From Pseudomonas phage BRkr, in sequence record LC765218.1: a stretch of DNA of 64,000 nt; one strand, given 5' to 3'. Within the stretch, counting starts at the first letter, position 1. Every line of letters starts with the position of its first letter. The notes below the pieces were generated by a model. It saw only the letters and a list, made by a program, of their open reading frames with translations. It was not told the origin of the DNA and ran no database searches. Below are positions 381-14,315 of this stretch, piece after piece. The position numbers and the translations under genes are program-made.

Positions 381-705
381 AATCGTAAGTCGTAACCTAC
401 TGCAATCCACTGGTGCTTGGGCAGTCGTCCATAACCGTGCTACCATGAACTTCATTGCTATCGGTCATGACCGTAAGGTTATTAAAGGTATCAGTCTGGG
501 TTATCCGGTGAATGTTGGTGATGTCGATTTCAGTCATGTCGTGGATGTCCCTATGACCTTCGAAATCAGTTATCAAAATGATCCTCATCTGGGTCATCCT
601 ACTGGTAATATGGAAGCTCTTCTGAAAGCTATTGAAGAAACTACCCATAAAACTCTAGGTCTTCCTAGCAAGTTGACCGTAGCTTCTAACGATGGAGGTG
701 TTTAA
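367..705 (+). CDS. hypothetical protein
   Basis: ATG at 367 (track start 361 is TTG); stop overlaps td start (TAATG). Confidence 0.5.
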   Translation: MTISEIVSRNLLQSTGAWAVVHNRATMNFIAIGHDRKVIKGISLGYPVNVGDVDFSHVVDVPMTFEISYQNDPHLGHPTGNMEALLKAIEETTHKTLGLPSKLTVASNDGGV

Positions 706-2048
706 TGCATCAGTATCTACAACTACTTGAAGATACCCAGAAGTACGGTGTATTTAAAGGTGACCGTACTGGTACGGGTACTACCTCTTTGTTCGGTAGA
801 CAGTTCCGCTATGATCTTCGTAACGGTAACCTCCCTGTAGTGACCACCAAGAAGATTCATCTTCCGTCGGTTGAAGAAGAACTCAACTGGATGAAGTCTG
901 GTGACACTCGCCTTGAGTATCTCCTGAGCAAGAACGTTACCATTTGGAATGAATGGGTTAAACCAGGTACTGAAGTATTTGAAATTGTTTCTGATGAGTG
1001 GTTAACCACGGCTGTTCAGAAAAAGTTCAAAAACGTTCCATTTGAAATGCACTTCAGTAATGAGATCGGTGATGTTGATTGGAAGTGGCTTGAACCCGAG
1101 CAGGGTACCCCAGCTAAACTTCTGATTAATCTGAAGACGTGGGCCGATACGGAACGCTTTGGTCCTGGTCCTAGTGCTTATGATTATTACGGCATGGCTC
1201 TACGTGTTTATCGCATCACTATTGGCGATGCAAAGATCGTAGTCAAAGACAAAGATGGTTCTCTTGTTGCTTACCGTTTAATCGGTGGTGACCTTGGTCC
1301 TGTCTACGGCAAGACATGGCGTGATATCGATGACGTTCGAATTGTCCCCAAAGTCGACTGGGTTAACTACGAGAAACGTGGTTTTAAATTCGTGGTAGAC
1401 GTACCTGGTGAAGACTATACTAAAGACGAGTGTGTTATTCGTCGACATGTGGATCAGGTTCAGGAACTCTTGTATCAGTTGGAGCATAATCCGGATAGTC
1501 GTCGTCTGATTATCTGCGCTTGGGATCCTCGGTTGGTTGAAGATCAAGCACTACCTCCATGCCACGCATTTATTCAGTTCTGGACTCGTGAGCTGACTCT
1601 AGAAGAACGTTATGAATGGGCGCAGGAAAATGATCCAGAATCACAGAACATTTATCTAGAGGATCAGCAACCTGAAACTGGACACGAGCTATGGGATAAA
1701 CTCGGGGTTCCGAAACGAGCTATCAGTTGCCAACTCTATCAAAGATCGGCGGACGAATTTTTGGGCGTGCCCTTTAACATCATGTTCTATTCGCTGATGA
1801 CCCATCAATTGGCGAACCAGTTTAACATGGTAGCAGAAGAGTTCATCTGGACTGGTGGTGACTGTCACATCTACAGTAACCATGAGGAACAGGTTACTCT
1901 GCAACGTTCGCGGAATACTTATCCTACTCCTACCATCCGCTTCAAGCCTGAGGCCAAAGGTAAACCTTTCCTTGATATCACTCGGGAAGATTACGAGATT
2001 CTGGATTATCAGTTCCATCCGCACATTGCTGGTAAAGTTGCTGTTTAA
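705..2048 (+). CDS. td: thymidylate synthase with two large insertions (447 aa)
   Basis: Motifs FGRQFRYDL, DLGPVYGKTWR, RRLIICAWDP, PPCHAFIQF, CQLYQRSADEFLGVPFNI; RBS GGAGG; ~110 aa and ~40 aa insertions relative to canonical ThyA. Confidence 0.9.
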   Translation: MHQYLQLLEDTQKYGVFKGDRTGTGTTSLFGRQFRYDLRNGNLPVVTTKKIHLPSVEEELNWMKSGDTRLEYLLSKNVTIWNEWVKPGTEVFEIVSDEWLTTAVQKKFKNVPFEMHFSNEIGDVDWKWLEPEQGTPAKLLINLKTWADTERFGPGPSAYDYYGMALRVYRITIGDAKIVVKDKDGSLVAYRLIGGDLGPVYGKTWRDIDDVRIVPKVDWVNYEKRGFKFVVDVPGEDYTKDECVIRRHVDQVQELLYQLEHNPDSRRLIICAWDPRLVEDQALPPCHAFIQFWTRELTLEERYEWAQENDPESQNIYLEDQQPETGHELWDKLGVPKRAISCQLYQRSADEFLGVPFNIMFYSLMTHQLANQFNMVAEEFIWTGGDCHIYSNHEEQVTLQRSRNTYPTPTIRFKPEAKGKPFLDITREDYEILDYQFHPHIAGKVAV

Positions 2049-2055
2049 CATAAAC

Positions 2056-2081
2056 GCCTCCCTTCGGGGAGGCTTTATTTT
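2056..2081 (+). terminator. rho-independent terminator hairpin GCCTCCC-TTCG-GGGAGGC + T-run
   Basis: perfect 7 bp stem, UUCG loop, TTTATTTT. Confidence 0.7.
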
Positions 2082-2101
2082 CCTTTGGAGGTATACTTCT
2101 T

Positions 2102-2509
2102 ATGAACAATATCGAACTTAAACATCAGCTTGAACTCGCCGTAGAACTGATGGGTGTAGACCCTGCTCCACTTAAAATCGGTATCGCTGGTGATCGAGTT
2201 GATACTGCAACACGATGCGGTATTTTCAATGGGAAAGATCCGGGTAGAGAATTCAGTATCGGTCTTGGAATTGTTAGCCGAAAGCAATGGCTTGAACTCA
2301 CTGATGATTCCCTGATTCTCAATAAACCAAATAAAGATCCGGTTGTCATTCCCTATGACGCTATCTATGAGTTGAACATTCCTCTGGAATATGGCGAACA
2401 AGCAGAAAAAGAAGGTTGGATGTATTACAACCTTCTCGGGGAATCGATGTTCATGTATTTGGATACCGGTAAAGAAGAGAAACTTCAACTAGCTAAGGTA
2501 GAAGCCTGA
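2102..2509 (+). CDS. hypothetical protein
   Basis: ATG with RBS GGAGG; ATGA overlap with next gene. Confidence 0.6.
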   Translation: MNNIELKHQLELAVELMGVDPAPLKIGIAGDRVDTATRCGIFNGKDPGREFSIGLGIVSRKQWLELTDDSLILNKPNKDPVVIPYDAIYELNIPLEYGEQAEKEGWMYYNLLGESMFMYLDTGKEEKLQLAKVEA

Positions 2510-3333
2510 TGGATCCACGACACCCAGTTAGCGATGAAATGCGCGCAACGGTAAACGCTGAACTTGACCGAATTGAGAGGAAGTACGGTGTAAAGATTAT
2601 TTACGCTTGTGAGTCTGGTAGTCGTGGTTGGGGTTTTGCTTCTACTAACAGTGACTATGATGTTCGTTTCATCTACGTTAACCATCCGAGTCATTACGTT
2701 CGTGTAGATAACGAAGGTCGTGACACTATCGAGGAGATGGTATCGAAAGAACTCGATCTAGCTGGTTGGAATATCACCAAGACTCTACAGTTGGCTTATA
2801 AGTCCAACCCAACTCTGTTGGAATGGCTAAACTCTCCGATCGTCTATCGGAAGAATCAATGGGACTACGATCTGATTCGTTCCTATGCCATCAAGCACTT
2901 CATTCCTGAATCGAGCTTCATGCATTATATCTCCATGGCCAAACAAACCAAGATGCGATGGCTGTCGGATGATAAGGTTCGAATGAAGAAATACTTCTAT
3001 GCTTTGCGTCCTCTACTTGCAGCATTGTGGGTAGAGACCAGTCGTGAACATCCACCCATGGTGTTCCATGAACTGTTGCCTATTCTGTCTGATCCTACTC
3101 TGTACAAGCGTATCCAAGAATTGGTTAACGCTAAGGTTGGAGCTACTGAGCAGGATCTCGTTGACCGTTGCCCAGTTCTTGATCGGTTCATTGATTTCCA
3201 TCTGGCTAAAGAGAAACCAAACTTCGGCGAATACGAACGTCCGGATATCTACAGGCTCAGTGAACTCGCTTGGCACTTCGTTGATCAATACAAGTTCGAC
3301 ACGTTCCAGTTACTACATGGTACTGAAAAATGA
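2509..3333 (+). CDS. nucleotidyltransferase-domain protein (Pol-beta superfamily-like)
   Basis: Motif ACESGSRGWGFASTNSDYDVRFIY typical of predicted nucleotidyltransferases (YcgL/COG3541-like). Confidence 0.55.
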   Translation: MDPRHPVSDEMRATVNAELDRIERKYGVKIIYACESGSRGWGFASTNSDYDVRFIYVNHPSHYVRVDNEGRDTIEEMVSKELDLAGWNITKTLQLAYKSNPTLLEWLNSPIVYRKNQWDYDLIRSYAIKHFIPESSFMHYISMAKQTKMRWLSDDKVRMKKYFYALRPLLAALWVETSREHPPMVFHELLPILSDPTLYKRIQELVNAKVGATEQDLVDRCPVLDRFIDFHLAKEKPNFGEYERPDIYRLSELAWHFVDQYKFDTFQLLHGTEK

Positions 3334-3920
3334 ACGGCGGATTAGAGATGGCTATTATAAATGCAGCAGCGGCACGTTCCCCACACGGTTACAGTGAATC
3401 CATCGGCTGTAAGATAACTACCCGTAAGGAACCGTACGTGCCTATTTCCAAATGGGTTAAATTACGGTGTGTCGTATTGTATCTACTCTGTCTGTTATTC
3501 TTGAGTGGCGCAATCTACAACAGCTTGTATTCGGAATACGTAACCAAACGTAAGACGGAGGTGATTCTAACTTGGAAGTGGGAGGAATCTTACAAGTACA
3601 AGAATGGCGTTTATACCGAACTAATGAGTCGTTGGGAAGGGAAGATGAAAGGAAAACCTTTCGTCTATGAAACCAAGCTGGATAATTACACCTATCACCA
3701 TGTTCCCGTAGGTACAAATTATGTCCTCGATATCGCCCCGCGCGATGTTGATGAAAGTAATAGCCTATGGATTATCATGAGCTTGGTATGGGCAGCTTTA
3801 GCTGCCATCTTGGGTGGACCTGCAATGTGGTTCAGTGTGAGACCATGGTTTGTTGATGTAGAACTCCGGAGGAAAGAGAAAGAATGTGCTATGAAAGAAG
3901 AATCATCCCACTCGCAATAA
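3330..3920 (+). CDS. membrane protein (2 predicted TM segments)
   Basis: ATGA overlap; hydrophobic segments VVLYLLCLLFLSGAIY and WIIMSLVWAALAAILGG. Confidence 0.5.
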   Translation: MNGGLEMAIINAAAARSPHGYSESIGCKITTRKEPYVPISKWVKLRCVVLYLLCLLFLSGAIYNSLYSEYVTKRKTEVILTWKWEESYKYKNGVYTELMSRWEGKMKGKPFVYETKLDNYTYHHVPVGTNYVLDIAPRDVDESNSLWIIMSLVWAALAAILGGPAMWFSVRPWFVDVELRRKEKECAMKEESSHSQ

Positions 3921-4270
3921 ACTCTTATCCTCTTCCAGCGTTCTTATGGAATGAGCGGTGCCTTCGGGCACCAAAGCCCTTCATGATCGATGGCTACTAT
4001 CACATACCTCCCTATCGTAGGGTAAGACCGGGATTTATAGTTGTTCCTACTGGCTTCACGACAACGCCTAGTACCGTAAGAGATGTAGTTGAGCCTCTAC
4101 GCGGTCGAGTGCGTAATACCAATAAGGCTATTGACAATTTACTCAAAAGTCTTATCTAATACGGACATGCATGACATTACTCTACATGTCCTTGGAATTC
4201 TGCGATCCCGACCTTGGCACAACGTTAAATCGTTGAATTCCTAAACCTTAAAACATCCGGAGCGTCTACA

Positions 4271-5524
4271 ATGACTACTCAAAATTACGTTATGCTGAAC
4301 GAACAAAATGAATTCCCAATCAAAGGCTGGGTTAAGGGCGTACCGGTTGAAGCCGATGCTAAGCGTCAGCTGAAAAACATTGCGGGACTCCCGTTCATTT
4401 ACAAGCATTTGGCAGTAATGCCTGATGTCCATCTTGGGACCGGTGCTACCATCGGTTCTGTTATCGCTACTCGGGGTGCAATCATTCCGTCTGCGGTAGG
4501 GGTCGATATTGGGTGCGGAATGGCCTGCCAGCTGACTGATCTGACAGCTAACGACATGACTCGTGGCCTACAACATCTTCGATATAGAATCGAGTCCCGT
4601 ATCCCCCATGGTCGTACTGACAATGGCGGACCTAACGACCGTGGTGCATGGAGTGACTTCAACCTCGTTTACAAGAAACTCGAACCAGAACTCCAAGTTC
4701 AGGTTAAGAAGCTTGAAGAGGAACTGAAGCTCATTGTAGCTAAACACCCCAAACTGGGTAAAGCAGCTAACCGTGCGTTCAACCATGCTGGTACCCTCGG
4801 CACTGGTAACCACTTCGTCGAAATCTGTCTGGATGAACAAGATCGAGTTTGGATCATGCTCCATTCGGGTTCTCGTGGGATCGGTAACGCTATTGGTCGG
4901 TACTTCATCGAGAAAGCAAAAGAGGAGATGCGGCTCTACCACATCAACCTGCCTGATCAGGACCTCGCTTATCTGCCGGAAGGTACCAAGTACTACAACG
5001 ATTACATCGAAGCTGTACATTGGGCTCAGCGTTATGCAGCACTCAACCGTACCATCATGATGCGGGCGACCATTGAGGCTGTAGCTGATTACATGGGTCG
5101 TCCAATCAATACCAGTCTCACTGCGGTCAACTGCCACCACAACTACGTGTCGTTCGAGAATCACTTCGGTGCGAAAGTATCCGTTACTCGTAAAGGCGCT
5201 GTACGGGCAGATGAAGGCATGTATGGTATTATCCCTGGATCGATGGGTGCAAAGAGCTTCATCGTGAAAGGTAAAGGGAACCGCGAGTCCTTCTGTTCGT
5301 GTTCGCACGGAGCAGGACGTGTCATGTCCCGAACCCAAGCCGCTAAGACTTTCACTCTTGAAGATCATGCTCGTGATACTGCCGGTATAGAATGCCGGAA
5401 AGACATTGACGTAATCGACGAGACTCCAAAGGCTTATAAGAACATCGAAGACGTAATGGCTGCTCAGGATGACCTCATTGAGATCGTCCACACCCTGCGT
5501 CAAATTGTTTGCGTCAAGGGCTAA
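4271..5524 (+). CDS. rtcB: RtcB RNA-splicing ligase (3'-phosphate/5'-OH RNA ligase)
   Basis: Motifs MPDVHLGTGATIGSV, GVDIGCGM, NHAGTLGTGNHFVEI, SCSHGAGR; RBS GGAG. Confidence 0.9.
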   Translation: MTTQNYVMLNEQNEFPIKGWVKGVPVEADAKRQLKNIAGLPFIYKHLAVMPDVHLGTGATIGSVIATRGAIIPSAVGVDIGCGMACQLTDLTANDMTRGLQHLRYRIESRIPHGRTDNGGPNDRGAWSDFNLVYKKLEPELQVQVKKLEEELKLIVAKHPKLGKAANRAFNHAGTLGTGNHFVEICLDEQDRVWIMLHSGSRGIGNAIGRYFIEKAKEEMRLYHINLPDQDLAYLPEGTKYYNDYIEAVHWAQRYAALNRTIMMRATIEAVADYMGRPINTSLTAVNCHHNYVSFENHFGAKVSVTRKGAVRADEGMYGIIPGSMGAKSFIVKGKGNRESFCSCSHGAGRVMSRTQAAKTFTLEDHARDTAGIECRKDIDVIDETPKAYKNIEDVMAAQDDLIEIVHTLRQIVCVKG

Positions 5525-5531
5525 CCCGAAC

Positions 5532-5547
5532 GGGGACTTCGGTCCCC
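5532..5547 (+). terminator. hairpin GGGGAC-TTCG-GTCCCC
   Basis: 6 bp stem, UUCG loop, weak T tract. Confidence 0.5.
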
Positions 5548-5571
5548 ATAACTTTCCTAAAGGAAAAATAA

Positions 5572-6459
5572 ATGATTCGAATTACTCAGCTTCACGGTAA
5601 CGGCCTGGCAGATCACTACGATTGTCAGCCCTTTAAATTCCCTGGCGGTGAGATCGGTATCAAGATCCCTCTGAAAGATCACAGAAAGAAAGGTGAACAA
5701 TTCATAGTCAATGCTTGGCTTCGTAATAGCGATGACATCATGGAACTGTTCCTGGTGTTCGATGCTATTCGTCGTCAACGTATTCGTCCTGAAATGCACC
5801 TGGTTATTGGTTATCTGCCGTATGCACGACAAGATCGTGTTTGCGATGAAGGTGAACCTTTGTCGATCAGTGTGATGACTAGCTTGATCAACGCATTGGA
5901 TGCTACATCCGTGTGTTTGTACGATCCGCACAGCAATGTGTCGCTACCGCTCATCAACAACTGTCGTGAAATCACCCAAGCTGATATTATCAAGAGCTGG
6001 GTATGTGTAGAAGGACAACTTCTGGAAACTCCACAAGAATGGTGGTTGGTTGCCCCTGATGAAGGTGCACGTAAAAAGATCGAAGCCATTGCAAAAGAGA
6101 TTGGCGCTGCTGGCGTACTCTACGCTTGCAAGAACCGTGAACTGTCGACTGGTAAGATCACCCATACGTCTTTGTTGAATGCCCATGATGTTCCTCGGTT
6201 AGCAAAGCTGTTGGTTATCGATGACATCTGTGATGGTGGCCGCACGTTCATTGAACTTGCTAAGGTTATCCACGAACAGTGCATCGTAGATCAACTGGGT
6301 CTGTTTGTAACCCATGGTATTTTCTCCAAGGGTTTCGACGAGCTGAACGAATACTACGACTATATCCAGACCACTAACACCTATCATCCTAACGCCGTAA
6401 ATGATTATCGGCATGATGGTGTACGTGACCCGAAATTCTTCTCCCATTCTGTTTTCTAA
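5572..6459 (+). CDS. ribose-phosphate pyrophosphokinase (PRPP synthetase) family protein; candidate ADP-ribose pyrophosphokinase
   Basis: Motifs GYLPYARQDR, LYDPHS (DLHA equivalent), LLVIDDICDGGRTF PRTase loop; RBS AAGGA. Confidence 0.85.
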   Translation: MIRITQLHGNGLADHYDCQPFKFPGGEIGIKIPLKDHRKKGEQFIVNAWLRNSDDIMELFLVFDAIRRQRIRPEMHLVIGYLPYARQDRVCDEGEPLSISVMTSLINALDATSVCLYDPHSNVSLPLINNCREITQADIIKSWVCVEGQLLETPQEWWLVAPDEGARKKIEAIAKEIGAAGVLYACKNRELSTGKITHTSLLNAHDVPRLAKLLVIDDICDGGRTFIELAKVIHEQCIVDQLGLFVTHGIFSKGFDELNEYYDYIQTTNTYHPNAVNDYRHDGVRDPKFFSHSVF

Positions 6460-6475
6460 TCCGAGGATCAAAAAT

Positions 6476-8242
6476 ATGTCTAATGCTCTCTATGCTGCAA
6501 CTGCTACTGACTGCTACAAACCCGGTCATGGTGCTCTGTACCCGAAAGGTACTGAACGTAAATATGCTAACTTCACCCCGCGCTCTGCTAAGCAGTTCCT
6601 GCGGTCGAAGTCTTGCTCTGCGTTCTACGATAACAAAGTCGTTAACTTCGGGTTGCAAGGTACCTGGCACGAACTGGTAGAACTGTGGGATCGCACCTTC
6701 TTCAATCTGCCTCGTGAAATTGCCGTCAAACGTGCACAACGTCGTTTCGACAACATGTGCGGTAAAGGCGTAATCAAACATGAGTGTCTGTACAAACTAC
6801 ATGAACTGGGTTATCTGCCTCTGACTGTACTGGCTATTGATGAAGGTGAACGTGTTAACATTGGTGTTCCAACTTTCGTAGTTTACAACAGTCTGGATGA
6901 CGATGATCATTACTGGCTGGTGAACTATCTGGAAACCATCGTTAGTTCGTACAACTGGAAAATGATTTGCAACGCAACCATCGCTGCTGAATACCAACGT
7001 GTATTGAACCATTATGCTGACCGTACTTGCGATAACCGTGAGCACGTTAAGTTCCAAGCACATGATTTCAGCTTCCGTGGTATGAGTGGCCCTGAAGATG
7101 CAATGCGTTCTGGCTCGGCTCACCTGACTAGCTTCGCTGGTACTGATACCATCCCGGCACTTGATTACGCTGAGATGTATTACGGTGCTAATAGCGATAC
7201 TGAACTGTTGGGTGCTTCGGTTACTGCAACCGAACACGCTGTAGCCACTACCAACATCCTGTACCGTTTGCAAATGAAGATCAACTTCCTCAAAGAGGAA
7301 GGTACTGTGATCACGCCGGAACTGCATGACAAACTGCGACTGGAAGCTGAACGTGACTACATTCTGGAGATCATTCTTCAGAAAGTTCCGGAAGGCATCA
7401 TCTCGCTGGTCTGTGATTCCTTCGACTTCTGGGGTGTTATCTCTGATGTTCTCCCGAGCATCCGTGCAGAAATCGAAAGTCGTCTGAAGAATGAACTTGG
7501 CCTTGCCAGGGTTGTTGTTCGTCCTGACTCCGGTGATCCGGTTAAAGTTATTACTGGCTACATGGCTTACCCGACTGAGTTTGCAGATCGCGCTGATTTC
7601 GAGAAGCACATCGGTGAACTGGGGTCCATTGAGTTCAGTGGCTACGAAGTTGTACGTATCGCAGGCGAATACTACGAGATCAATCACATTGCTTCGTTGC
7701 TCTCCGATTTCCTGTCTGAAAAGACTATCCCGGAAGTTGAAGTACGTGGTGCGATTGAAGTCCTGTGGGATTCCTTTGGCGGTACTGTTAACGGTAAAGG
7801 CTTCAAATGCCTGAACGAATATGTTGGCCTGATCTATGGCGATTCGATTACTGTAGAACGTACCGAGCAGATCATGTCTCGCTTGGAACGTAAAGGCTAC
7901 GCCTCTAGTAACGTCGTTCTCGGTATTGGTAGCTACACCTATCAGTACAACACTCGCGATACGTTCGGTATGGCCGTTAAAGCCACTGCTGTTCAGATCG
8001 AAGAGGAATTCGTAGAGCTGTATAAAGATCCAAAAGCTGCATCTAGTAAGAAGTCTGCAAAAGGTTTCCTTCGTGTAATTAAAGATGAAGAAGGTAACTT
8101 CGTTCTTGAACAAGAAGCCGACATGTCTTGGGCGACTCTGGAGACAGAATCCGGCGAATTGAAGCTGTTCTTTAAGAATGGTGAATTCTACAAGAACGAC
8201 ACGATGGCAAAAATCCGGGAACGGATTGCGACCTCTCTGTAA
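6476..8242 (+). CDS. nicotinamide phosphoribosyltransferase (NAMPT/NadV) family protein
   Basis: Motif HDFSFRGMSGPEDAMRSGSAHLTSFAGTDT matches NAMPT active-site region; RBS AGGAT; ATG at 6476 (track start 6401 lies inside previous gene). Confidence 0.9.
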   Translation: MSNALYAATATDCYKPGHGALYPKGTERKYANFTPRSAKQFLRSKSCSAFYDNKVVNFGLQGTWHELVELWDRTFFNLPREIAVKRAQRRFDNMCGKGVIKHECLYKLHELGYLPLTVLAIDEGERVNIGVPTFVVYNSLDDDDHYWLVNYLETIVSSYNWKMICNATIAAEYQRVLNHYADRTCDNREHVKFQAHDFSFRGMSGPEDAMRSGSAHLTSFAGTDTIPALDYAEMYYGANSDTELLGASVTATEHAVATTNILYRLQMKINFLKEEGTVITPELHDKLRLEAERDYILEIILQKVPEGIISLVCDSFDFWGVISDVLPSIRAEIESRLKNELGLARVVVRPDSGDPVKVITGYMAYPTEFADRADFEKHIGELGSIEFSGYEVVRIAGEYYEINHIASLLSDFLSEKTIPEVEVRGAIEVLWDSFGGTVNGKGFKCLNEYVGLIYGDSITVERTEQIMSRLERKGYASSNVVLGIGSYTYQYNTRDTFGMAVKATAVQIEEEFVELYKDPKAASSKKSAKGFLRVIKDEEGNFVLEQEADMSWATLETESGELKLFFKNGEFYKNDTMAKIRERIATSL

Positions 8243-8250
8243 TAGACATG

Positions 8251-8273
8251 GGGAGCTTCGGCTCCCCTTTATG
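8251..8273 (+). terminator. hairpin GGGGAGC-TTCG-GCTCCCC + TTTAT
   Basis: perfect stem, UUCG loop. Confidence 0.7.
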
Positions 8274-8293
8274 TCATAAAAAAGATTTCAAAT

Positions 8294-8302
8294 CTATATT
8301 AC
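8294..8302 (+). promoter_or_regulatory. conserved intergenic motif CTATATTAC (candidate phage promoter), about 30 nt upstream of ATG 8332
   Basis: same 9-mer recurs at 7 intergenic sites, always after a terminator and before a start codon. Confidence 0.45.
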
Positions 8303-8331
8303 TCTCTTGTATCCACAACGAGGTAACTGCA

Positions 8332-8730
8332 ATGTCGAATAAAGACCGTTTAGATGAAAAGAAAGAATGGCAAGAATCGAACCCAGTTCTCAATGAGTTC
8401 TGCTGGACTATAAGTCGTACCATGGGCGACGTAGCACGTACCAGTGACGACCGTACTCCCATTGTCGATATCCCTGCTGGAAAGACTTATGAAATCACTA
8501 CCAACCAGGAGAACGATATTTATAATGTCGGTCTTGAAACTGGTATGGTGAACTTCGTTGATCACCTACGCGAGAATGGTTACAAGATCATCTCGCCGGT
8601 AAGTGGGCATCCTGTCCCATTTGAGCAAGCTGTAACCTTGGTAAATAGCACAGAGCAGGTCGTACAAGAACTACCTGGTAAGTCTTTCGTTGAAACCTTC
8701 TATGATTATAACTGGGGTGTGAATACATGA
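8332..8730 (+). CDS. hypothetical protein (C-terminus ...NWGVNT)
   Basis: ATG with RBS GAGGT; ATGA overlap with next ORF. Confidence 0.6.
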   Translation: MSNKDRLDEKKEWQESNPVLNEFCWTISRTMGDVARTSDDRTPIVDIPAGKTYEITTNQENDIYNVGLETGMVNFVDHLRENGYKIISPVSGHPVPFEQAVTLVNSTEQVVQELPGKSFVETFYDYNWGVNT

Positions 8731-8933
8731 TCGCAGCGCCGCCGACACCGGGTAAAGTAACGATAGATGGTTTACGTCGAACGTTGTCAGATCAGATTGA
8801 AGCTGAAATTTCATTGGCTTGTCGTGAAATTGAACTGACAGACATTCGTTATGTAGATCAAAAAGAAATACTCGAAATAGTGCGGCGGTTCCGTAATGAC
8901 GTTCGCACAACCATCACTGATAAAGGTAAATAA
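8727..8933 (+). CDS. hypothetical small protein
   Basis: ATGA coupling upstream; stop 1 nt before ligase start. Confidence 0.5.
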   Translation: MIAAPPTPGKVTIDGLRRTLSDQIEAEISLACREIELTDIRYVDQKEILEIVRRFRNDVRTTITDKGK

Positions 8934-8934
8934 A

Positions 8935-10290
8935 ATGACGATTGAAATGGATGAATTGAAACCGATCCGCGAAGGTTTTGGTGTAGTAGAAGAAACTCGT
9001 AAGCTTGCACGCATTGTTGAGATCGATGATGTTGTGAAACACCCTAATGCCGATGCTCTGGAATTGGCTATTGTTGGTGGTTGGCAACTTTGTGTAAAGA
9101 TGGGCGAATATAAGAAAGGTGATCGCGCTATTTACTGCGAGATTGATTCTCTTCTTCCTCTGGATAACGTTAAGCTCTTCGGTTTTCTTGAGAGCCGTCG
9201 GTCCGACAATCGACGTGTAGACGGTAAAAACTATCATCGTTTGAAAACTATCAAGCTTCGTAAAGAGCTCTCTCAAGGACTACTGGTTCCGATTCCCGAT
9301 GAGTTCAAAGATGAACCCGTTGATACTAACCTGACCCTGAAGCTGGGTATCCTTAAGTACGAGTCTGCTCCTCCGATGGTATCGAAGGCTCATGCAGCAC
9401 GTAACGCTCCGTGGATCGTTAAGCTTGGTGCCAAGCTGATTGGTAATCTGGGTGGCGCTCTGAAACCGTGGCCTGAGATGCTAACTAAGTCCGATCAAGA
9501 CCGCATTCAGAATAAGACCGTTGCGTTTTATAACCTGAAAGAAGACGGTGATGACATGGAAGTTACCTATAAGCTGGATGGTAGCTCCATGACCGTATTC
9601 TGTGTCGATGACAAAGGTATTCGTACTGGCGTTTGTTCGCGGAACTACGAACTCGGAATGGGTGGTGAGAAGTGGGGATTCATCCAGCAGCTTCGGTATT
9701 GGGTTGGTAACTTCCTTATCCGTAACCGTAATCTGTTCCGTAAGAAGACCTGGGTTACTCCAGAAGGTAAACTTCGTAATGGTATTATTCTGCCCCTTTG
9801 GACGAAAGGTACCGCTATCGAAGACAATAACTTCGTACGTGTAACTAACCAACAACAGATCATCGAACGTCTTCTCAAGTTCCACAAGAACACCGGTCGC
9901 TTCATTTCTGTACAAGGGGAACTGATTGGACCATCTATTCAAGATAACTTTGAAGAAGTGGCTGATTACGATTATTACATCTTCAACGTATATGAGGATG
10001 GTAATCGTGAACTCCTGCCGGCCGAAGCACGAGCTGTTGTAAAAGACCTTGGTCTGAATTATGTTCCCGTACTTGACCCGTGCTGGAAACCTTCTAAGGA
10101 AATGTCTGTTAAAGATGTTCTCGCTATGGCTGAAGGTCCATCTGCATTTAAGAACAAGCGCGGATACCGGGAAGGTCTGGTATTTAAGTCCAACCAACGT
10201 GTTCTGTCGTGGAAAGCCATTTCGACTAATTATCTCTTGAAGAAAGAGAAAGAAGAAGAGAAAGCAGCTGCTAAAGAAGACGCTGTATAA
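8935..10290 (+). CDS. ATP-dependent RNA ligase with N-terminal tRNA-binding-like OB domain
   Basis: Nucleotidyltransferase motif I TYKLDGSS (KxDG); N-terminal VKHPNADALELAIVGGWQLCV resembles the hpnADkL tRNA-binding OB fold; lysine-rich C-terminus. Confidence 0.8.
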   Translation: MTIEMDELKPIREGFGVVEETRKLARIVEIDDVVKHPNADALELAIVGGWQLCVKMGEYKKGDRAIYCEIDSLLPLDNVKLFGFLESRRSDNRRVDGKNYHRLKTIKLRKELSQGLLVPIPDEFKDEPVDTNLTLKLGILKYESAPPMVSKAHAARNAPWIVKLGAKLIGNLGGALKPWPEMLTKSDQDRIQNKTVAFYNLKEDGDDMEVTYKLDGSSMTVFCVDDKGIRTGVCSRNYELGMGGEKWGFIQQLRYWVGNFLIRNRNLFRKKTWVTPEGKLRNGIILPLWTKGTAIEDNNFVRVTNQQQIIERLLKFHKNTGRFISVQGELIGPSIQDNFEEVADYDYYIFNVYEDGNRELLPAEARAVVKDLGLNYVPVLDPCWKPSKEMSVKDVLAMAEGPSAFKNKRGYREGLVFKSNQRVLSWKAISTNYLLKKEKEEEKAAAKEDAV

Positions 10291-10299
10291 CGACATAAA

Positions 10300-10327
10300 G
10301 GGAGCTCTAGCTCCCTTTTTATTTTTG
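10300..10327 (+). terminator. hairpin GGGAGC-TCTA-GCTCCC + T-run
   Basis: stem plus TTTTTATTTTT. Confidence 0.7.
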
Positions 10328-10343
10328 TCAAGAAGGTGAATAT

Positions 10344-10730
10344 ATGTCACAAGCTCTAAAATTCCTGACTCGTAATTTGGATAGTGAAGAACTATACCTG
10401 ATATTGAACTGGAAGACCGATAAGGTTCTCTCTCCTATTCTTCAGACAGTTGGTATCCTATCTGAAGAAATGGGTGAAGAAGGGCGACGCGTCTACTATA
10501 AGTTCGATAACGCCATTTGGAAACTTTGTCGACTTATCCGGGCCGAACATAATCTTCCAGAGTTCCAAGAAGATCTCATCAGTGTTGTTCGCAACTACTT
10601 TAAGTTTATCTGGCGTGACGATGGATTCAATATTGTTATCTTTGAAGAACCTGGATATGCTCGTGTCGAGTATAGTACTACCATTGACGTAATGGACATC
10701 TTCCATGAAGGTAAACCTCGTCGGCTCTAA
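10344..10730 (+). CDS. hypothetical protein
   Basis: ATG with RBS AAGGTG. Confidence 0.6.
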   Translation: MSQALKFLTRNLDSEELYLILNWKTDKVLSPILQTVGILSEEMGEEGRRVYYKFDNAIWKLCRLIRAEHNLPEFQEDLISVVRNYFKFIWRDDGFNIVIFEEPGYARVEYSTTIDVMDIFHEGKPRRL

Positions 10731-10986
10731 GAAAACCATAACTGCATTGCTGTATAACAACAATGTATATTCGTTTGCTTTCTTTGCTGAGACAATCAGG
10801 AAAGCTATTGAAGCGTATGACCCAAATCAGCGCTTCACCATCAGCTATCGTCGTTATATGCCACTATGGCAGAAAATCCGGATGACGATATTCCGCCAAT
10901 ACTCGGATCAGATGTATGTCAATCAAATAAGGATCCAGCTTCAGACGGACAAAACCTGGGAAACTATTCTTGACGTAGAGGGATAA
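10705..10986 (+). CDS. hypothetical protein
   Basis: ATG at 10705, overlaps previous ORF by 26 nt. Confidence 0.4.
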   Translation: MKVNLVGSKKTITALLYNNNVYSFAFFAETIRKAIEAYDPNQRFTISYRRYMPLWQKIRMTIFRQYSDQMYVNQIRIQLQTDKTWETILDVEG

Positions 10987-10988
10987 AC

Positions 10989-11438
10989 ATGTCAATATTT
11001 TACCGTTACGCTAGTCAACCTAAAACAGAAATTGTTTGGTGGAATCCCATTAGTTGGATTAAACGTGGTTGGCAAGAACTCACCACAGCTAATGCATCTG
11101 ATGGACACACGTTCTTTACAGCGTTATATTTCTGTTCTCTCCTTCTGTCAATGTGGTTGATCCATATTCTATTCGTGGGTTGGTTCCGTTGTCTGTTTAT
11201 ACCTCGGTGTTGGATTGGTCGAGTTGATCAGCTGAAGGAAGGTTACATTTATGATTGGGGTACTTACACGAAAGAGGCTAGAGAATGTATTCTAGCTAAT
11301 TCTGATAGCCCTCACGCAATTGTAAAAATCGTTGAACGAGTTAATCCAATCTTCATGGCAGATGAAGGTTTCTGTAGTATATACTCACCTAACTACAAAT
11401 GGAAACGAAGCTGGCGTGAACTTTTTTCTCGGAATTAG
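10989..11438 (+). CDS. hypothetical protein with one TM segment
   Basis: RBS GAGGGA; hydrophobic ALYFCSLLLSMWLIHILFVGWF. Confidence 0.55.
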   Translation: MSIFYRYASQPKTEIVWWNPISWIKRGWQELTTANASDGHTFFTALYFCSLLLSMWLIHILFVGWFRCLFIPRCWIGRVDQLKEGYIYDWGTYTKEARECILANSDSPHAIVKIVERVNPIFMADEGFCSIYSPNYKWKRSWRELFSRN

Positions 11439-11490
11439 AAAATACCGAGTTAACTGATAATGTGTTATTAACTATAAACAGGAAACGAAA

Positions 11491-12048
11491 ATGTCTCAAG
11501 AAATCGATTTGACTGTATCTCCGCTGGAACCTCGTAAAGAGACTCCCCTACAACCGACTGACGTTTTTGACATCGTCCGTAAGTGTGGTCTTACTGAAGA
11601 CTTTAAACGTCTCTGCTATGAAGATGCCACTCCAGAAGAACTCGATTTTAATCCTGACGTAGTTACTGTCTACCGTCATGATCTCGGATTGAAATTCCTT
11701 CGTGGTAAAAATCTGCCGACTACGCTGGAAGATCTGAAGGATCGAACTGAAGTTCTGTTTGAAACCATGACTGCTGGTAAGATTGACTATAAAGCCGGTG
11801 AAATGATTGTTCTTTTCCCTCGCCCTGTTTATAGTGGTAGCGATCTTAAAAATAACATGGTCATTGCCATTGTTAAAGAAGACTTTAAGTTCGAATCTGA
11901 CGTAGATCTTAACTGTGGCGGCGAAGAGAATTTCGAAATTGCGATGCGCCCCTATGTAGAAGGTGGACAACTGGAACTGGTTACTAATCCTGGTCTTCGT
12001 GTGTATAGCGCGTATGAACGTTGGACTTTCCTGGAACGGTTTAAATGA
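11491..12048 (+). CDS. hypothetical protein
   Basis: RBS GGAAA; ATGA overlap with next gene. Confidence 0.6.
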   Translation: MSQEIDLTVSPLEPRKETPLQPTDVFDIVRKCGLTEDFKRLCYEDATPEELDFNPDVVTVYRHDLGLKFLRGKNLPTTLEDLKDRTEVLFETMTAGKIDYKAGEMIVLFPRPVYSGSDLKNNMVIAIVKEDFKFESDVDLNCGGEENFEIAMRPYVEGGQLELVTNPGLRVYSAYERWTFLERFK

Positions 12049-12614
12049 AAATTCTTGAACAACTGACACAAAAAGGTCTGCTTGACGAATTCATTTCTGA
12101 ATTTTGTACGACCTCTGCTCTCGGTCCACAAGTTATTTCAGATCGTCTTCCCGATGCCAAGAAATGGTTGGAAAGTCATTCTATCACATTTGAGTCGAAG
12201 GGGAGCATCGAAAGAACCCCTCGGCTCATTGCAGAATCTGATTTCCGTATTGATCAATGGATGCGTGTTGTAAACAATAAGCTGGACTATCTTGAGACAG
12301 CTTATGATAAAGCAATTGAACAAGGGGTTAGTCTAAATAACAGCTTCTTCAATTACGATATCAGTGTCCTGTATACTCTTGATAAAAAGCGTCTAGATGC
12401 TTACCCAATAACTGTCGCTCGGGTTAGAGCCTTTGCAGAGAAGATCGGTGCGCAACCTTATCGTCTTCTTAATGGCGATATTAATACGAGGATAGCTTAT
12501 GAGGAAGAATACTACGCCGCGTACGTCAAGGAACCATATAAGGCGATCATGGGAAACCCCGACTACTACAAGGAAACCATCGAAGCCGCGAATGAATGCT
12601 ACGGACGTCCGTGA
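12045..12614 (+). CDS. hypothetical protein
   Basis: ATGA-coupled ORF. Confidence 0.6.
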   Translation: MKILEQLTQKGLLDEFISEFCTTSALGPQVISDRLPDAKKWLESHSITFESKGSIERTPRLIAESDFRIDQWMRVVNNKLDYLETAYDKAIEQGVSLNNSFFNYDISVLYTLDKKRLDAYPITVARVRAFAEKIGAQPYRLLNGDINTRIAYEEEYYAAYVKEPYKAIMGNPDYYKETIEAANECYGRP

Positions 12615-12870
12615 TATTTATCGCGACATCGAATCGTTAGTTCCTGTCCCACCTCCATTGAAAGAACCAATTCCAGTGAGTGTCGATCCAGTCTATTCGA
12701 CGATAGACATAGATTGGAATGAGAAGAAATCTGGTGTCAAGTTTGTACCCAGAGAACGATTCAATCTGTTTGACGGTATATCGCCGTGGACATGGTTCTG
12801 CATCGCCTTTCTCTCTGGATGTTGGATTGGTATCGAAATCATTAGCGCTTACTTAACGAGGTCATTATGA
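12592..12870 (+). CDS. hypothetical small protein with C-terminal TM segment
   Basis: ATG at 12592 within alternative-frame ORF 12499..12870; ATGA overlap with next gene. Confidence 0.4.
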   Translation: MNATDVRDIYRDIESLVPVPPPLKEPIPVSVDPVYSTIDIDWNEKKSGVKFVPRERFNLFDGISPWTWFCIAFLSGCWIGIEIISAYLTRSL

Positions 12871-13178
12871 GTCTGCTCCTTTCTGCTTGTCAACGACTGC
12901 ATGCTATCGCCACTGTTGGTTTCCCCAACTATCTAAAAGATCGAGCTACTTTTGTTGGAGATAAGGAGTATATTCTCCAGGTAATTGCACATTTCGAAAA
13001 GTATCACTGGACTGAACAGTTGAGTGAAGCTATCAATGATTATGTACGCAGTCGTAAGAAAGCGCGTACATGGACAGTCACCGTTGTACCTTCGATTCTT
13101 CAACCTGGTACAGCTCTGTTTAAGTTCAAAGGTGACGATGGTAGTACTCTTTCTATTCGCATTAGGAAAGCTCTATGA
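12867..13178 (+). CDS. hypothetical protein
   Basis: RBS GAGGT. Confidence 0.55.
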   Translation: MSLLLSACQRLHAIATVGFPNYLKDRATFVGDKEYILQVIAHFEKYHWTEQLSEAINDYVRSRKKARTWTVTVVPSILQPGTALFKFKGDDGSTLSIRIRKAL

Positions 13179-13238
13179 GAGACGATTATGAAGGTTTCTG
13201 ATTCTTGGGAAGACTACATCTTCTCTTAACGTCATATA

Positions 13239-13258
13239 AGCCCGGCGTTAGCTGGGCT
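13239..13258 (+). terminator. hairpin AGCCCGGC-GTTA-GCTGGGCT + TTTAT
   Basis: 8 bp stem with one G-U pair. Confidence 0.5.
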
Positions 13259-13280
13259 TTATATCGATTAGGGTATTCCG

Positions 13281-13748
13281 ATGTCAGCAAAAAATAAAAT
13301 CAACATAGATCTATACGAAGTGTATCTCCGCTTCATTTATTTGAATCAGGCGATAAAACTTCCACGTACTGAATTCGAGCAATTCAAAAAAGAGTTTGTC
13401 AGAAAGGTACGCTATTTTTATAAAAACGTAACCAGAGCTCCTCTCATCTGGAACAATAGTCATTATCTCGTTCAACTTTACAGAGTAATGGTTGAAGAAG
13501 ATAAAGAAGCTATTCAAAAAGAAATTCAAACCGAACTCGATTGGCTGTTCGATATTTGTCGTATTTGGATCGACTCTCCTAATTGGAATGGAGTCGGTGT
13601 AGATGAGTATGTTTACCGAACAGATCTATTCCATATCGAATCTTATTACAGATGGGTTTGGAATAGAAGGGCAGAAATTGTTTATCCTCCCTTCTCAGAA
13701 ATCAAAGAAATCTACATCGCCATCGAAAAAGAACTTGAAGGAAAATAA
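13281..13748 (+). CDS. hypothetical protein
   Basis: ATG after terminator. Confidence 0.55.
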   Translation: MSAKNKINIDLYEVYLRFIYLNQAIKLPRTEFEQFKKEFVRKVRYFYKNVTRAPLIWNNSHYLVQLYRVMVEEDKEAIQKEIQTELDWLFDICRIWIDSPNWNGVGVDEYVYRTDLFHIESYYRWVWNRRAEIVYPPFSEIKEIYIAIEKELEGK

Positions 13749-13749
13749 A

Positions 13750-14310: not shown

Positions 14311-14315
14311 ATCAC

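Follow-up and report, generated by a model that had tools for sequence, protein, structure and literature searches.

A damage-reversal cluster is plausible in BRkr, a nucleus-forming jumbo phage of Pseudomonas aeruginosa (genus Pawinskivirus, family Chimalliviridae), a group 1 phage in which RtcB, an ATP-dependent RNA ligase (Rnl5), RlaP and NAD genes were found inside 8 kb. The window, i.e. the whole 64-kb stretch of record LC765218.1 that was analyzed, shares 99.7% nucleotide identity with phiLBG22, and the cluster occupies its variable arm 3' of thyA, with RlaP, RtcB, the NARP1 pair and Rnl5 all encoded on the + strand (Table 1). With moderate confidence, we read the cluster as a set of auxiliary genes that undo damage rather than block the damaging enzymes. 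An earlier note on this DNA had proposed a counter-defence island, and the genes it named (RtcB, the NAD pair, the RNA ligase, an upstream nucleotidyltransferase and two small ORFs) were all confirmed in place. The island itself gained from two intact ligases, RlaP, NARP1 and a conserved arrangement, but its ligase chemistry had to be revised and co-conservation was only partial. Jumbo-phage RNA repair and NAD synthesis were previously proposed as conflict adaptations (PMC7824862), and every family in the cluster, as well as the counter-defence concept, is published. As all parts belong to known families, the cluster would be a well-equipped tool-kit against bacterial suicide defences, of a kind that is not new. 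A literature search returned no experiment with a phage RtcB, RlaP or Rnl5 countering a defence system.

Table 1. Features of the BRkr cluster, in window coordinates.
Feature	Position	Strand	Evidence
phiKZ-type intrinsic terminator, 3' of thyA	2056..2073	+	GCCTCCC-TTCG-GGGAGGC + TTTATTTT; terminator scan
ORF135, orphan, PHIKZ236 family	2102..2509	+	phrog_30953 at 5e-68
RlaP, Pol-beta-family nucleotidyltransferase	2509..3333	+	PF10127 at 3e-89, 299 bits; motif GSRGWG...SDYDV
ORF196, predicted two-pass membrane protein	3330..3920	+	two hydrophobic segments in translation
RtcB, GTP/Mn-dependent RNA ligase	4271..5524	+	PF01139 at 6e-130; PDB RtcBs at 2e-35
GC hairpin between rtcB and adps	5532..5547	+	GGGGAC-TTCG-GTCCCC, sequence reading
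Adps, Prs-like ADP-ribose pyrophosphate synthetase, NARP1 step 1	5572..6459	+	phrog_619 at 2e-80
Namat, nicotinamide ADP-ribose transferase, NARP1 step 2	6476..8242	+	phrog_448 at 1e-175
phiKZ-type terminator right after namat	8250..8267	+	GGGGAGC-TTCG-GCTCCCC + TTTATG; kept in PS119XW
Candidate virion-RNA-polymerase (early) promoter motif	8286..8309	+	TTTCAAATC-TATATTAC-TCTC-TTG
ORF132, orphan, first in ligase operon	8332..8730	+	just 3 real relatives in 1.84e9 representatives
ORF68, orphan	8727..8933	+	start overlaps ORF132 stop (ATGA)
Rnl5-family (NgrRnl/DraRnl-type) ATP-dependent RNA ligase	8935..10290	+	PF21189 OB domain + PF09414 NTase
Terminator after ligase gene	10297..10318	+	AAAGGGAGC-TCTA-GCTCCCTTT + TTATTTTT; kept in PS119XW; terminator scan

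RtcB is present and intact, as had been claimed, with a complete set of catalytic motifs (MPDVH, DIGCG, GNHF, HSGSRG, CHHN and SHGAGR). It is intein-free, while in the PS119XW copy the DIGCG cysteine is the site of a 948-bp intein. Going by its characterized homologues, the enzyme should ligate RNA 5'-OH ends to ends with a 3'-P or a 2',3'-cyclic-P, and would reseal 2',3'-cyclic-P/5'-OH breaks, for which metal-independent RNases (PrrC, RloC, HEPN enzymes and colicin-type nucleases) would be the source. The upstream nucleotidyltransferase-domain gene was identified as RlaP. This enzyme extends RNA 3' ends and is associated with RNA ligases; its family adds 1-2 NMP to RNA 3'-OH ends and leaves a 3'-OH product that suits 5'-P ligases and not RtcB (PMC12776372). 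In BRkr, RlaP would extend RNA 3'-OH ends that lost bases by one or two nucleotides, and its product would be a substrate for Rnl5, not RtcB. Directly 5' of RlaP in every case are genes of the ORF135 family, whose relatives form only five clusters among 5.8e9 proteins, every one from phiKZ-like phages; the BRkr protein has 98% amino acid identity to that of PhiPizzaParty. Membership of ORF196 in the module is doubtful: it had no family matches in Pfam, PHROG or NCBIfam, and only 71% amino acid identity to PS119XW, compared with 97-100% for the neighboring genes.

The NAD-reconstitution pair seen between the ligases proved to be NARP1, whose function has been described (bioRxiv 10.1101/2024.02.11.579819; PMC12774641). 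Adps scores under the curated cut-offs of every NCBIfam Prs model, and 97% of Adps-clade genes adjoin Namat, as in BRkr (bioRxiv 10.1101/2024.02.11.579819). The best solved relative of Namat is SpbetaL1 Namat (9w5w, 1e-103), with human NAMPT at 1e-44. Together, Adps and Namat would rebuild NAD+ from ADP-ribose and nicotinamide once NADase effectors had cut it. While the phage nucleus would protect phage DNA, cytoplasmic tRNA, mRNA and NAD+ would be open to abortive-infection effectors, and the RNA-repair and NARP1 genes may be clustered because all of them meet this same need.

The ligase carries the expected KxDG motif (TYKLDGSS, 9565-9588), in which the motif I lysine is K213 (KLDG, 9571-9582), and matches the Naegleria RNA ligase 5cot at 4e-46 across both domains, i.e. 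an N-terminal Trbp111-like OB domain (about 8995-9363, with HPNADAL at 9040-9060) and a C-terminal NTase domain. Its score against TIGR02306, 141 bits, is just below the cut-off of 151. Between motifs Ia and III it has an extra stretch of about 55-75 aa, which only jumbo-phage copies share. The more likely start is ATG 8935 rather than 8896, as it has an AGGT Shine-Dalgarno 8 nt 5', lies 1 nt past the ORF68 stop and agrees with homologue starts. Of the idea that the N-domain resembles tRNA-binding domains, the fold stood, being that of tRNA-binding OB domains; however, the PF01588 (tRNA_bind) profile did not match the Rnl5 sequence, and the demonstrated role of the NgrRnl OB domain is contact with the ATP gamma-phosphate, not tRNA (PMC7261155). 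The domain may still aid in engaging tRNA-like substrates.

NgrRnl and DraRnl act on duplexes, in which they seal nicks with 3'-OH/5'-PO4 ends, and the physiological role of characterized Rnl5 enzymes has been termed 'uncharted' (PMC5397189, PMC7261155). By analogy, BRkr Rnl5 would close 3'-OH/5'-P breaks using ATP. That both ligases heal tRNA cut by anticodon nucleases thus agrees with RtcB end chemistry, but not with an Rnl5-type enzyme, for which the 2',3'-cyclic-P/5'-OH ends produced by PrrC, RloC or HEPN nucleases are not substrates. The reported lack of a polynucleotide kinase-phosphatase held, with PNK, HAD, 2H and metallophosphatase domains absent among the 79 proteins of the window. 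Given the duplex-nick specificity and this absence, Rnl5 therefore probably acts on breaks other than those of RtcB. The two ligases would be complementary in end chemistry and non-redundant, which would explain the absent kinase/phosphatase. Rnl5 could instead be an ATP-dependent 'ribo-patch' sealer of 3'-ribonucleotide nicks in phage DNA or RNA:DNA hybrids, as proposed for DraRnl, and not serve RNA repair. We regard this as improbable, although it fits the DraRnl/NgrRnl substrate specificity (PMC5397189, PMC7261155), Rnl5 genetics, which are limited to DNA repair (an irradiation-sensitive Deinococcus knockout, PMC5397189), and the frequent location of Rnl5 near thyA and DNA-metabolism genes, e.g. 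in Aeromonas T4-like loci (L065, L087) and by topoisomerase genes in BcepSaruman. Against it are the N-domain fold, the adjacency of Rnl5 to RtcB in several phages, namely Erwinia pEa_SNUABM_48, L020 and L100, and the fact that phiKZ replicates without Rnl5.

The cluster comprises at least two transcription units, ORF135-RlaP-ORF196-RtcB-Adps-Namat followed by ORF132-ORF68-Rnl5. The terminator behind thyA marks the upstream limit of the first and agrees with the phiKZ motif, in which TTAT comes after a GC hairpin (PMC10914365). The hairpin behind rtcB is probably not a full terminator; it has no T-run and is absent from the output of the terminator scan, which gave no consensus terminator in the RtcB-NARP1 interval. 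The ligase operon is set apart as its own unit by terminators and a promoter-like motif. All seven TATATTAC sites in the window lie on the + strand, intergenic and just 5' of genes; the extended motif also occurs in the phiPA3, phiKZ-like, D6, Viktualia and RP12 loci, and the AR9 early consensus resembles it (PMC5312081). From this pattern we infer that it acts as a promoter and that the operon is probably early-expressed. The suggestion that the two small ORFs belong to the same function was supported by their translational coupling to the ligase gene. Both are real ORFs, kept at 99% amino acid identity in PS119XW, and a relative of ORF132, phiPA3 gp288, lies directly 5' of phiPA3 Rnl5. The AlphaFold model of ORF132 was unusable (pLDDT 42), and family searches with ORF68, including NCBIfam, gave no matches. 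A 160-aa ORF at 8248-8730 was rejected because the terminator hairpin fills 8250-8267.

An identical block was found in all six Pawinskivirus records, and Ralstonia phage RP12 has the same order, ThyA-x-RtcB-Adps-Namat-x-Rnl5, which other Chimalliviridae show in rearranged form. Pawinskivirus and Ripduovirus both belong to Chimalliviridae, where gene order could be inherited synteny. Possibly, then, the genes are neighbors merely through an inherited auxiliary-metabolism arm of the family (thyA, NAD, ligases, HD hydrolase), act independently, some as housekeeping genes, and NARP1 mainly maintains NAD+ for the phage NAD+-dependent DNA ligase, an enzyme present in most Group 1 (phiKZ-like) jumbo phages (PMC7824862). 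We give this a minor though appreciable probability. It is in line with the separate transcription units of RtcB and Rnl5, with thyA sharing the conserved neighborhood in nearly all relatives, and with a backbone collinear with phiPA3 from Rnl5 onward. In addition, thyA and an HD-domain gene turn up near NARP1 about as often as Rnl5 does, pointing to a general 'auxiliary gene arm'. The synteny check recommended earlier was likewise divided: outside Pawinskivirus and RP12, RtcB lies 37-43 kb off NARP1-Rnl5 in D6/Psa21/RVTF4-like phages, with RlaP more than 200 kb away in the D6/Psa21-like ones, while phiPA3 has the ligase alone near the cluster position and phiKZ RlaP alone. Pakpunaviruses have NARP1 and Rnl5 about 49 kb apart, and of 80 viral RtcB loci just 3-4 had NARP1 or Rnl5 in the vicinity, all from jumbo phages except for Rnl5 at L166. 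On the other side, Pawinskivirus and RP12 have entirely different small ORFs around the enzymes but the same enzyme order; RtcB, Adps and Namat adjoin one another in two genera, with just 5 nt separating them in RP12; and Viktualia, L023/L092 and L016/L093 have rearranged clusters still inside 11 kb. Ligase-NARP1 adjacency also recurs among contigs unrelated at the nucleotide level. Beyond jumbo phages, five NARP1 loci have Rnl5 within 10 kb and two further distinct ones have other PF09414 ligases within the same distance, in neighborhoods where PNK-type kinases, metallophosphatases and one RlaP occur as well. Moreover, NARP1 defeats NADase defences experimentally (bioRxiv 10.1101/2024.02.11.579819).

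RtcB might also serve the phage's own RNA processing, e.g. tRNA maturation or repair of self-inflicted nuclease cuts, since it is a tRNA-splicing ligase of archaea and eukaryotes and the phage has genes for five tRNAs and for two HNH endonucleases. This seems very unlikely, as the tRNAs are ordinary and intron-free (ARAGORN, Rfam), and the related phages phiKZ and phiPA3 show no RtcB near the locus or among close database matches.

The damage-reversal reading has parallels in several known systems. T4 Pnkp and Rnl1 against PrrC share the proposed logic, i.e. host-cut tRNA is religated to escape abortive infection; BRkr differs in having neither a polynucleotide kinase-phosphatase nor Rnl1. RtcB would be a one-step solution, and the ATP-dependent ligase of BRkr is of another family, with predicted duplex-nick specificity. 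In bacterial rtcB-rlaP-rtcA operons, such as those of P. aeruginosa and P. fluorescens (PMC12776372), RtcB is near RlaP, as in BRkr, and the same chemistry is expected. Unlike these operons, BRkr lacks the RtcA cyclase and RtcR regulator, has a gap of 350 nt as well as a membrane-protein ORF between RlaP and RtcB, and adds a 5'-P ligase (Rnl5) that would take the RlaP 3'-OH product. With DraRnl/NgrRnl (5cot; TIGR02306 DRB0094 family), BRkr Rnl5 shares the domain order, motifs I (KxDG), III, IV and V, and the residues by which the N-domain contacts ATP (equivalents of Arg4, Asp53, Lys121 and Arg149), but it differs in the insertion and in its apparent operon with two orphan ORFs. Adps adjoins Namat also in NARP1 of SpbetaL1, Bas63 and FADO (Osterman et al. 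2024), while BRkr Namat, at 588 aa, exceeds the usual length of about 495 aa by some 90 aa. The BRkr NARP1 also belongs to a nucleus-forming jumbo phage and sits 3' of RtcB, the interval between them being free of consensus terminators. Finally, Iyer et al. 2021 (PMC7824862) catalogued RtcB, ATP-dependent RNA ligases, RlaP and NAD synthesis as jumbo-phage conflict adaptations, as found in BRkr, but handled the systems separately, named Rnl1 and Rnl2, not Rnl5, and preceded NARP1; RNA repair was uncommon in their group 1 (nucleus-forming), whereas BRkr, of that group, carries the whole set.

Nucleotide comparison of window 2000-10500 gave 99.7% identity to Pseudomonas phage vB_PaeM_phiLBG22, with values of 90-96% for PS119XW, HHBS36_1, phiHQ and PA1C and of 86% for HPP-Temi. 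These are all P. aeruginosa phages of about 300 kb. The genus Pawinskivirus, with PS119XW as type species, belongs under current NCBI taxonomy to Chimalliviridae, the family of nucleus-forming jumbo phages. All genes named in an earlier note on this DNA, i.e. those for RtcB, an NAD pair, an RNA ligase and an upstream nucleotidyltransferase, were found intact on the plus strand.

The RtcB protein reaches 434.7 bits against PF01139 (cut-off 27), covering model positions 1-426, and retains all of the expected motifs, namely MPDVH (Asp/His), DIGCG (Cys), GNHF, HSGSRG, HHN and SHGAGR (His), the last of which includes the GMP-accepting histidine. Neither alignment A3 nor that to TTHA1785 shows any variation in them. 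By analogy the enzyme is predicted to be a GTP/Mn-dependent joiner of 2',3'-cyclic-P or 3'-P ends to 5'-OH ends. At 49.8%, the GC content of rtcB exceeds that of the other genes (mean 43.8%, sd 2.6), a deviation too weak to claim recent acquisition. In PS119XW, RtcB is interrupted in frame by a 948-bp insertion (8517-9465 of locus L001), which sits exactly at the DIGCG catalytic cysteine and corresponds to window 4514-4517. The best NCBIfam model for this protein is 'intein-containing RtcB', and the insertion is presumably an intein, found in PS119XW alone and missing from the window copy and other relatives.

The NAD pair between the two ligases matches NARP1, a two-enzyme NAD-rebuilding pathway, with the Prs-like gene 16 nt upstream of the Namat-like gene. 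The Nampt-like protein aligns at 1e-103 to the SpbetaL1 Namat crystal structures 9w5w/9w5x versus 1e-44 to human and rodent NAMPT, and would by this measure belong to the Namat clade, not to Nampt. Its partner stays below the curated threshold in each of the 11 NCBIfam Prs models, matches solved Prs structures weakly (1e-14) and is regarded here as a divergent, putative Adps; adjacency to Namat is a hallmark of the Adps clade (bioRxiv 10.1101/2024.02.11.579819). Judged by sequence, the pair is NARP1, predicted to make NAD+ from ADPR and nicotinamide, a pathway whose role in counter-defence is established (bioRxiv 10.1101/2024.02.11.579819).

The upstream nucleotidyltransferase proved to be RlaP, whose Pol-beta motif is made up of GSRGWG (residue 37) and SDYDV (residue 48); a comparison with PDB sequences gave no match. 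RtcB starts 938 nt and Rnl5 5.6 kb downstream of it, and phiKZ-like phages carry the same RlaP with no ligase nearby. ORF135 has homologues in the phiKZ group only and no match in Pfam or NCBIfam. The two genes form a cassette (window 2016-3302) with ~90% nucleotide identity to Phikzvirus phages (98% and 89% in amino acids for ORF135 and RlaP, respectively), but the adjoining ThyA is only 47% identical in amino acids, which suggests that the cassette was recently exchanged between genera. Just the C-terminal half of RlaP is left in KTN4-type phiKZ phages. ThyA itself (window 705-2048) has 447 aa against a 266-position Pfam model, and so holds ~170 aa of insertions. The phiKZ, phiPA3, D6 and Viktualia proteins are of similar length, that of RP12 has just 300 aa, and relative to PS119XW there is an indel at 1609-1709.

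In the ligase, the TYKLDGSS stretch put forward earlier as the KxDG motif is indeed motif I (9565-9588). In the 464-aa reading from 8896, the more likely start being the ATG at 8935, an N-terminal OB domain (PF21189, residues 37-133) precedes a C-terminal nucleotidyltransferase (NTase) domain (PF09414, 312-435), an order opposite to that of DNA ligases. Each domain aligns to 5cot, and the sole significant solved relatives are structures of the Naegleria gruberi RNA ligase, NgrRnl (4e-46 over both domains). This combination of domains and relatives assigns the protein, at the sequence level, to the Rnl5 family (NgrRnl/DraRnl family, TIGR02306 'DRB0094'), although it scores 141.1 bits against TIGR02306, whose equivalog cut-off is 151.15, the match being broken in two by a jumbo-phage insertion. 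Common to jumbo-phage Rnl5 copies, the insertion comprises ~55-75 aa between NTase motifs Ia and III (window 9700-9930, residues ~256-332 of the 464-aa reading) and includes a conserved W-G-x-L-RNR-x-F stretch; it is missing from NgrRnl and BcepSaruman and much shortened in PaP1.

The NgrRnl active-site residues include Arg4, Asp53, Lys121, Arg149, Lys170, Asp172, Glu227, Glu312 and Lys326 (PMC7261155), and each of these has an invariant counterpart in alignment A2 of six phage homologues, where R22, D71, K141, R190, K213/D215/G216, E329, E413 and K427 of the ligase are invariant and line up with NgrRnl. Also present are the lysine of motif I (KxDG), a Glu each in motifs III and IV, and the Lys of motif V. 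The ligase is accordingly placed among predicted sealers of 3'-OH/5'-PO4 nicks with RNA as the 3'-OH strand, by analogy with its family; as a rival possibility, it may seal DNA or RNA:DNA 'ribo-nicks', an activity proposed for the Deinococcus enzyme (PMC5397189). The earlier note also likened the N-terminal domain to a tRNA-binding OB fold. This holds at the level of fold, with a match to solved tRNA-binding OB domains (Trbp111/CsaA/EMAPII), but not of sequence models: PF01588 gave no match in the ligase, even at E<=10, and a profile from 36 N-domains reached only E=0.58 against MetRS-C 1mkh. In NgrRnl the OB domain contacts the ATP gamma-phosphate, and Arg4, Asp53, Lys121 and Arg149 make ATP contacts across the N-domain and NTase (PMC7261155).

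Table. Features of the putative RNA-repair and NAD locus and other elements in the window
Feature	Position	Strand	Remark
Terminator hairpin, phiKZ type	2056-2073		after thyA
ORF135	2102-2509	+	small orphan ORF
RlaP	2509-3333	+	PF10127 at 3e-89, 299.3 bits (cut-off 23)
ORF196	3330-3920	+	small orphan ORF
RtcB	4271-5524	+	PF01139 end to end, 6e-130
Adps, Prs-like	5572-6459	+	phrog_619 at 2e-80
Namat, Nampt-like	6476-8242	+	best solved relative SpbetaL1 Namat
Terminator hairpin, phiKZ type	8250-8267		after namat
ORF132	8332-8730	+	small orphan ORF
ORF68	8727-8933	+	small orphan ORF
Rnl5 ligase	8935-10290	+	464-aa reading starts 8896
Terminator hairpin, phiKZ type	10297-10318		after ligase
C-TATATTAC-N4-TG copies	8295, 14375, 18574, 25566, 25616, 30336, 42579	+	A/T-rich stretch 5'
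HD-domain protein	16256-16864		HD_4, RelA/SpoT-like
Kelch-repeat protein genes	54120-55700, 55997-56935, 58905-60752, 62471-63478	-	

In terminators of the phiKZ type, TTAT follows a GC stem with a tetraloop (PMC10914365). Between the first two of them are ORF135-RlaP-ORF196, a gap of 350 nt and RtcB-Adps-Namat, with only a GC hairpin lacking a T-run at the rtcB/adps boundary. Downstream of the namat hairpin we found TTTCAAATC-TATATTAC-TCTC-TTG at 8286-8309. All seven copies of TATATTAC in the window are intergenic, on the plus strand, just 5' of genes and share an extended consensus; the same motif was found in the phiPA3, phiKZ-like, D6, Viktualia and RP12 loci, and it resembles the early virion-RNA-polymerase consensus of AR9 (PMC5312081). 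From its placement, its recurrence in relatives and the likeness to AR9 we infer an early promoter at 8286-8309, and the motif is a candidate for a family-wide early (virion RNA polymerase) promoter. A sigma-70 promoter scan was uninformative; these phages rely on their own RNA polymerases.

ORF132 and ORF68 overlap by ATGA and the ligase ATG lies one base past the ORF68 stop, which, together with the flanking terminators and motif, argues for ORF132-ORF68-Rnl5 as a self-contained operon. To this extent the idea that the small ORFs belong to the function of their neighbours holds, namely for the ligase. For ORF132, a word-indexed search returned the PA1C copy only, and an exhaustive HMMER search of 1.84 billion representative proteins three real, small relatives and one repeat-protein false positive. 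One relative is phiPA3 gp288, directly 5' of the phiPA3 Rnl5, while the neighbour of another, in locus L170, is not an Rnl5. An AlphaFold model of ORF132 from 5 sequences was unusable (pLDDT 42). ORF196, ORF68 and the downstream ORFs at 10344-15637 had no informative family match. ORF196, a predicted two-pass membrane protein, is 71% identical in amino acids to its PS119XW counterpart versus 97-100% for its neighbours. The gap 5' of rtcB (3921-4270) holds no convincing gene and matches no Rfam family, five tRNAs being the only Rfam matches in the whole window, and contains a GGTGCC-TTCG-GGCACC hairpin; a 91-aa ORF there was rejected as a gene, being of unnatural composition and unannotated in PS119XW.

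Six Pawinskivirus records share one and the same organisation of the block, PS119XW differing by the RtcB insertion. Ralstonia phage RP12 (Ripduovirus, Chimalliviridae) has ThyA-x-RtcB (67%)-Adps (41%)-Namat (49%)-gp211-Rnl5 (35%), i.e. the enzyme order of the window with none of the surrounding small ORFs in common; its RtcB-Adps gap is 5 nt, and no terminator was found within its RtcB-to-Rnl5 run. Synteny is kept in part only: D6/Psa21/RVTF4-like phages retain Adps-Namat-x-ThyA-x-Rnl5 with RtcB 37-43 kb off and RlaP elsewhere. Viktualia-like phages have RtcB..Adps-Namat..ThyA..Rnl5 in <=11 kb, one metagenomic jumbo phage Adps-Namat..RtcB-Rnl5, and in Erwinia pEa_SNUABM_48 and two further loci (L020 and L100) Rnl5 adjoins RtcB without NARP1. 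In phiKZ-like phages, thyA, ORF135 and RlaP are shared, followed by complete divergence up to the HD gene, with no RtcB, NARP1 or Rnl5 in the thyA-to-HD region. phiPA3 has thyA ... ORF132-homologue-Rnl5 (75%) ... HD, RtcB and NARP1 being absent nearby. In the thyA/NARP1 neighbourhood of relatives, i.e. at 888-2753 of L168 (phiPA3) and 5968-6915 of L004 (Viktualia), record annotation gives an SspB-like protein and, in phiPA3, also a macro-domain protein (ADP-ribose-related). Pakpunaviruses carry NARP1 and Rnl5 ~49 kb apart in a 93-kb genome.

A rival reading takes the auxiliary-gene arm as inherited synteny without functional coupling, NARP1 mainly feeding the NAD+-dependent DNA ligase that is typical of group 1 jumbo phages (PMC7824862). 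Wider scans covered IMG/VR, +/-10 kb around each gene, as raw counts with relatedness ignored. Rnl5 was near 4 of 80 RtcB loci and NARP1 near 3 of 80, all of jumbo phages save one Rnl5 locus (L166), and Rnl5 loci had Adps and Namat nearby in 10 of 80 cases and RtcB in 3 of 80. Adps occurred in 76 of the 80 Namat loci and a true Rnl5, i.e. a ligase with N-terminal OB domain, in 15 (10 jumbo phages and 5 contigs unrelated at the nucleotide level); at two more distinct Namat loci the ligase was of another PF09414 type, and Rnl2 C-domains were detected in that set. Set against the RtcB counts, these make the association of NARP1 with ATP-dependent RNA ligases, not with RtcB, the tightest general one. 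By raw counts, the neighbourhood of NARP1 holds thyA and HD genes about as often as it holds Rnl5. The ligase-NARP1 pairing recurs in several Chimalliviridae arrangements and in at least 6-7 phage contigs that are unrelated in nucleotide sequence, some of which have ligase, Adps and Namat in an uninterrupted row. A Pfam census of the non-jumbo neighbourhoods revealed metallophosphatases (5), AAA_33 kinases (2), a PNKP HAD domain and one RlaP. That Rnl5-type (sometimes Rnl2-type) ligases are functionally coupled to NARP1, beyond being neighbours, strikes us as rather improbable. On one reading of such coupling, NADase-armed abortive-infection systems would also make 3'-OH/5'-P nucleic-acid breaks; on another, an ATP-dependent nick sealer would back up the phage NAD+-dependent DNA ligase during NAD+ depletion. 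If true, either would be the first physiological role for the 'uncharted' Rnl5 family.

Enzyme chemistries were assigned from characterised family members. RtcB would join 3'-P or 2',3'-cyclic-P to 5'-OH in one step, such ends coming from metal-independent RNases, and Rnl5 would join 3'-OH to 5'-P, ends that come from metal-dependent nucleases or after end-healing. RlaP would add one or two nucleotides onto RNA 3'-OH ends, giving a product that is unusable by RtcB and suits 5'-P ligases (PMC12776372). On the most economical reading, each of the two ligases would handle its own type of ends and RlaP would feed Rnl5; this would explain the missing kinase/phosphatase. As the earlier note had remarked, no polynucleotide kinase-phosphatase is evident: Pfam scans of the 79 proteins of the 64-kb window detected no polynucleotide kinase, HAD, 2H or metallophosphatase domain. 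The single phosphohydrolase is the HD-domain protein, a homologue of phiKZ gp246 and possibly an alarmone hydrolase; as a backbone gene common to phiKZ and phiPA3, independent of ligase presence and resembling RelA/SpoT hydrolases, it was rejected as the missing RNA 3'-phosphatase. The same arm encodes an SPFH/Band-7 protein and a BCS1-like AAA ATPase (23313-24179; 43447-44961), and elsewhere in the window are a GNAT acetyltransferase and two HNH_3 endonucleases.

That RtcB instead works on the phage's own RNAs is improbable, given how ordinary the five phage tRNAs look. Their genes (Thr, Leu, Tyr, Asn and Met) alternate with four Kelch-repeat genes on the minus strand at 53976-63679, each Kelch gene being followed by a tRNA gene after ~45-140 nt, a pattern suggestive of a recurring 'Kelch gene + tRNA' unit. 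A counter-defence role for RtcB, RlaP and Rnl5 may be proposed; our literature search found no experimental paper on any of the three as phage counter-defence. Their clustering with NARP1 makes sense in a phage that shields its DNA in a proteinaceous nucleus and leaves tRNA, mRNA and NAD+ exposed to the cytoplasm.

Every component family is already described and GenBank relatives carry these annotations. Jumbo-phage RNA repair, RlaP and NAD synthesis have been surveyed (PMC7824862, PMC9503650), RNA repair being reportedly uncommon in the nucleus-forming group (Iyer et al., PMC7824862). Four points go unstated in the literature surveyed: that two genera of Chimalliviridae keep the order RtcB-Adps-Namat-x-Rnl5; that elsewhere, too, ligase and NARP1 repeatedly adjoin; how the operons of the locus are built; and, the NgrRnl structure paper aside, that the N-domain of Rnl5 resembles tRNA-binding OB domains in fold. 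Nucleus-forming jumbo phages are phage-therapy candidates and largely evade DNA-targeting immunity, so that the remaining limit is cytoplasmic defence of the abortive-infection type, i.e. tRNA/mRNA cleavage and NAD+ depletion. From the compact cluster of RtcB, RlaP, Rnl5 and NARP1 one would read off the kinds of attack that the Pawinskivirus lineage can presumably undo; only parts of the cluster are present in the related phiKZ and phiPA3. Component families and general idea alike having been published before, the practical gain stays modest, and the locus has some value as a test bed for the physiological role of Rnl5. It offers a natural genetic system for the in vivo role of these ligases, and also for how the 3'-OH product of RlaP is ligated, as RtcB cannot use it. 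Compared with tRNA repair of the T4 Pnkp-Rnl1 type, no 5'-kinase/3'-phosphatase was found among the 79 window proteins, and the ligase is of the Rnl5 type, not Rnl1.
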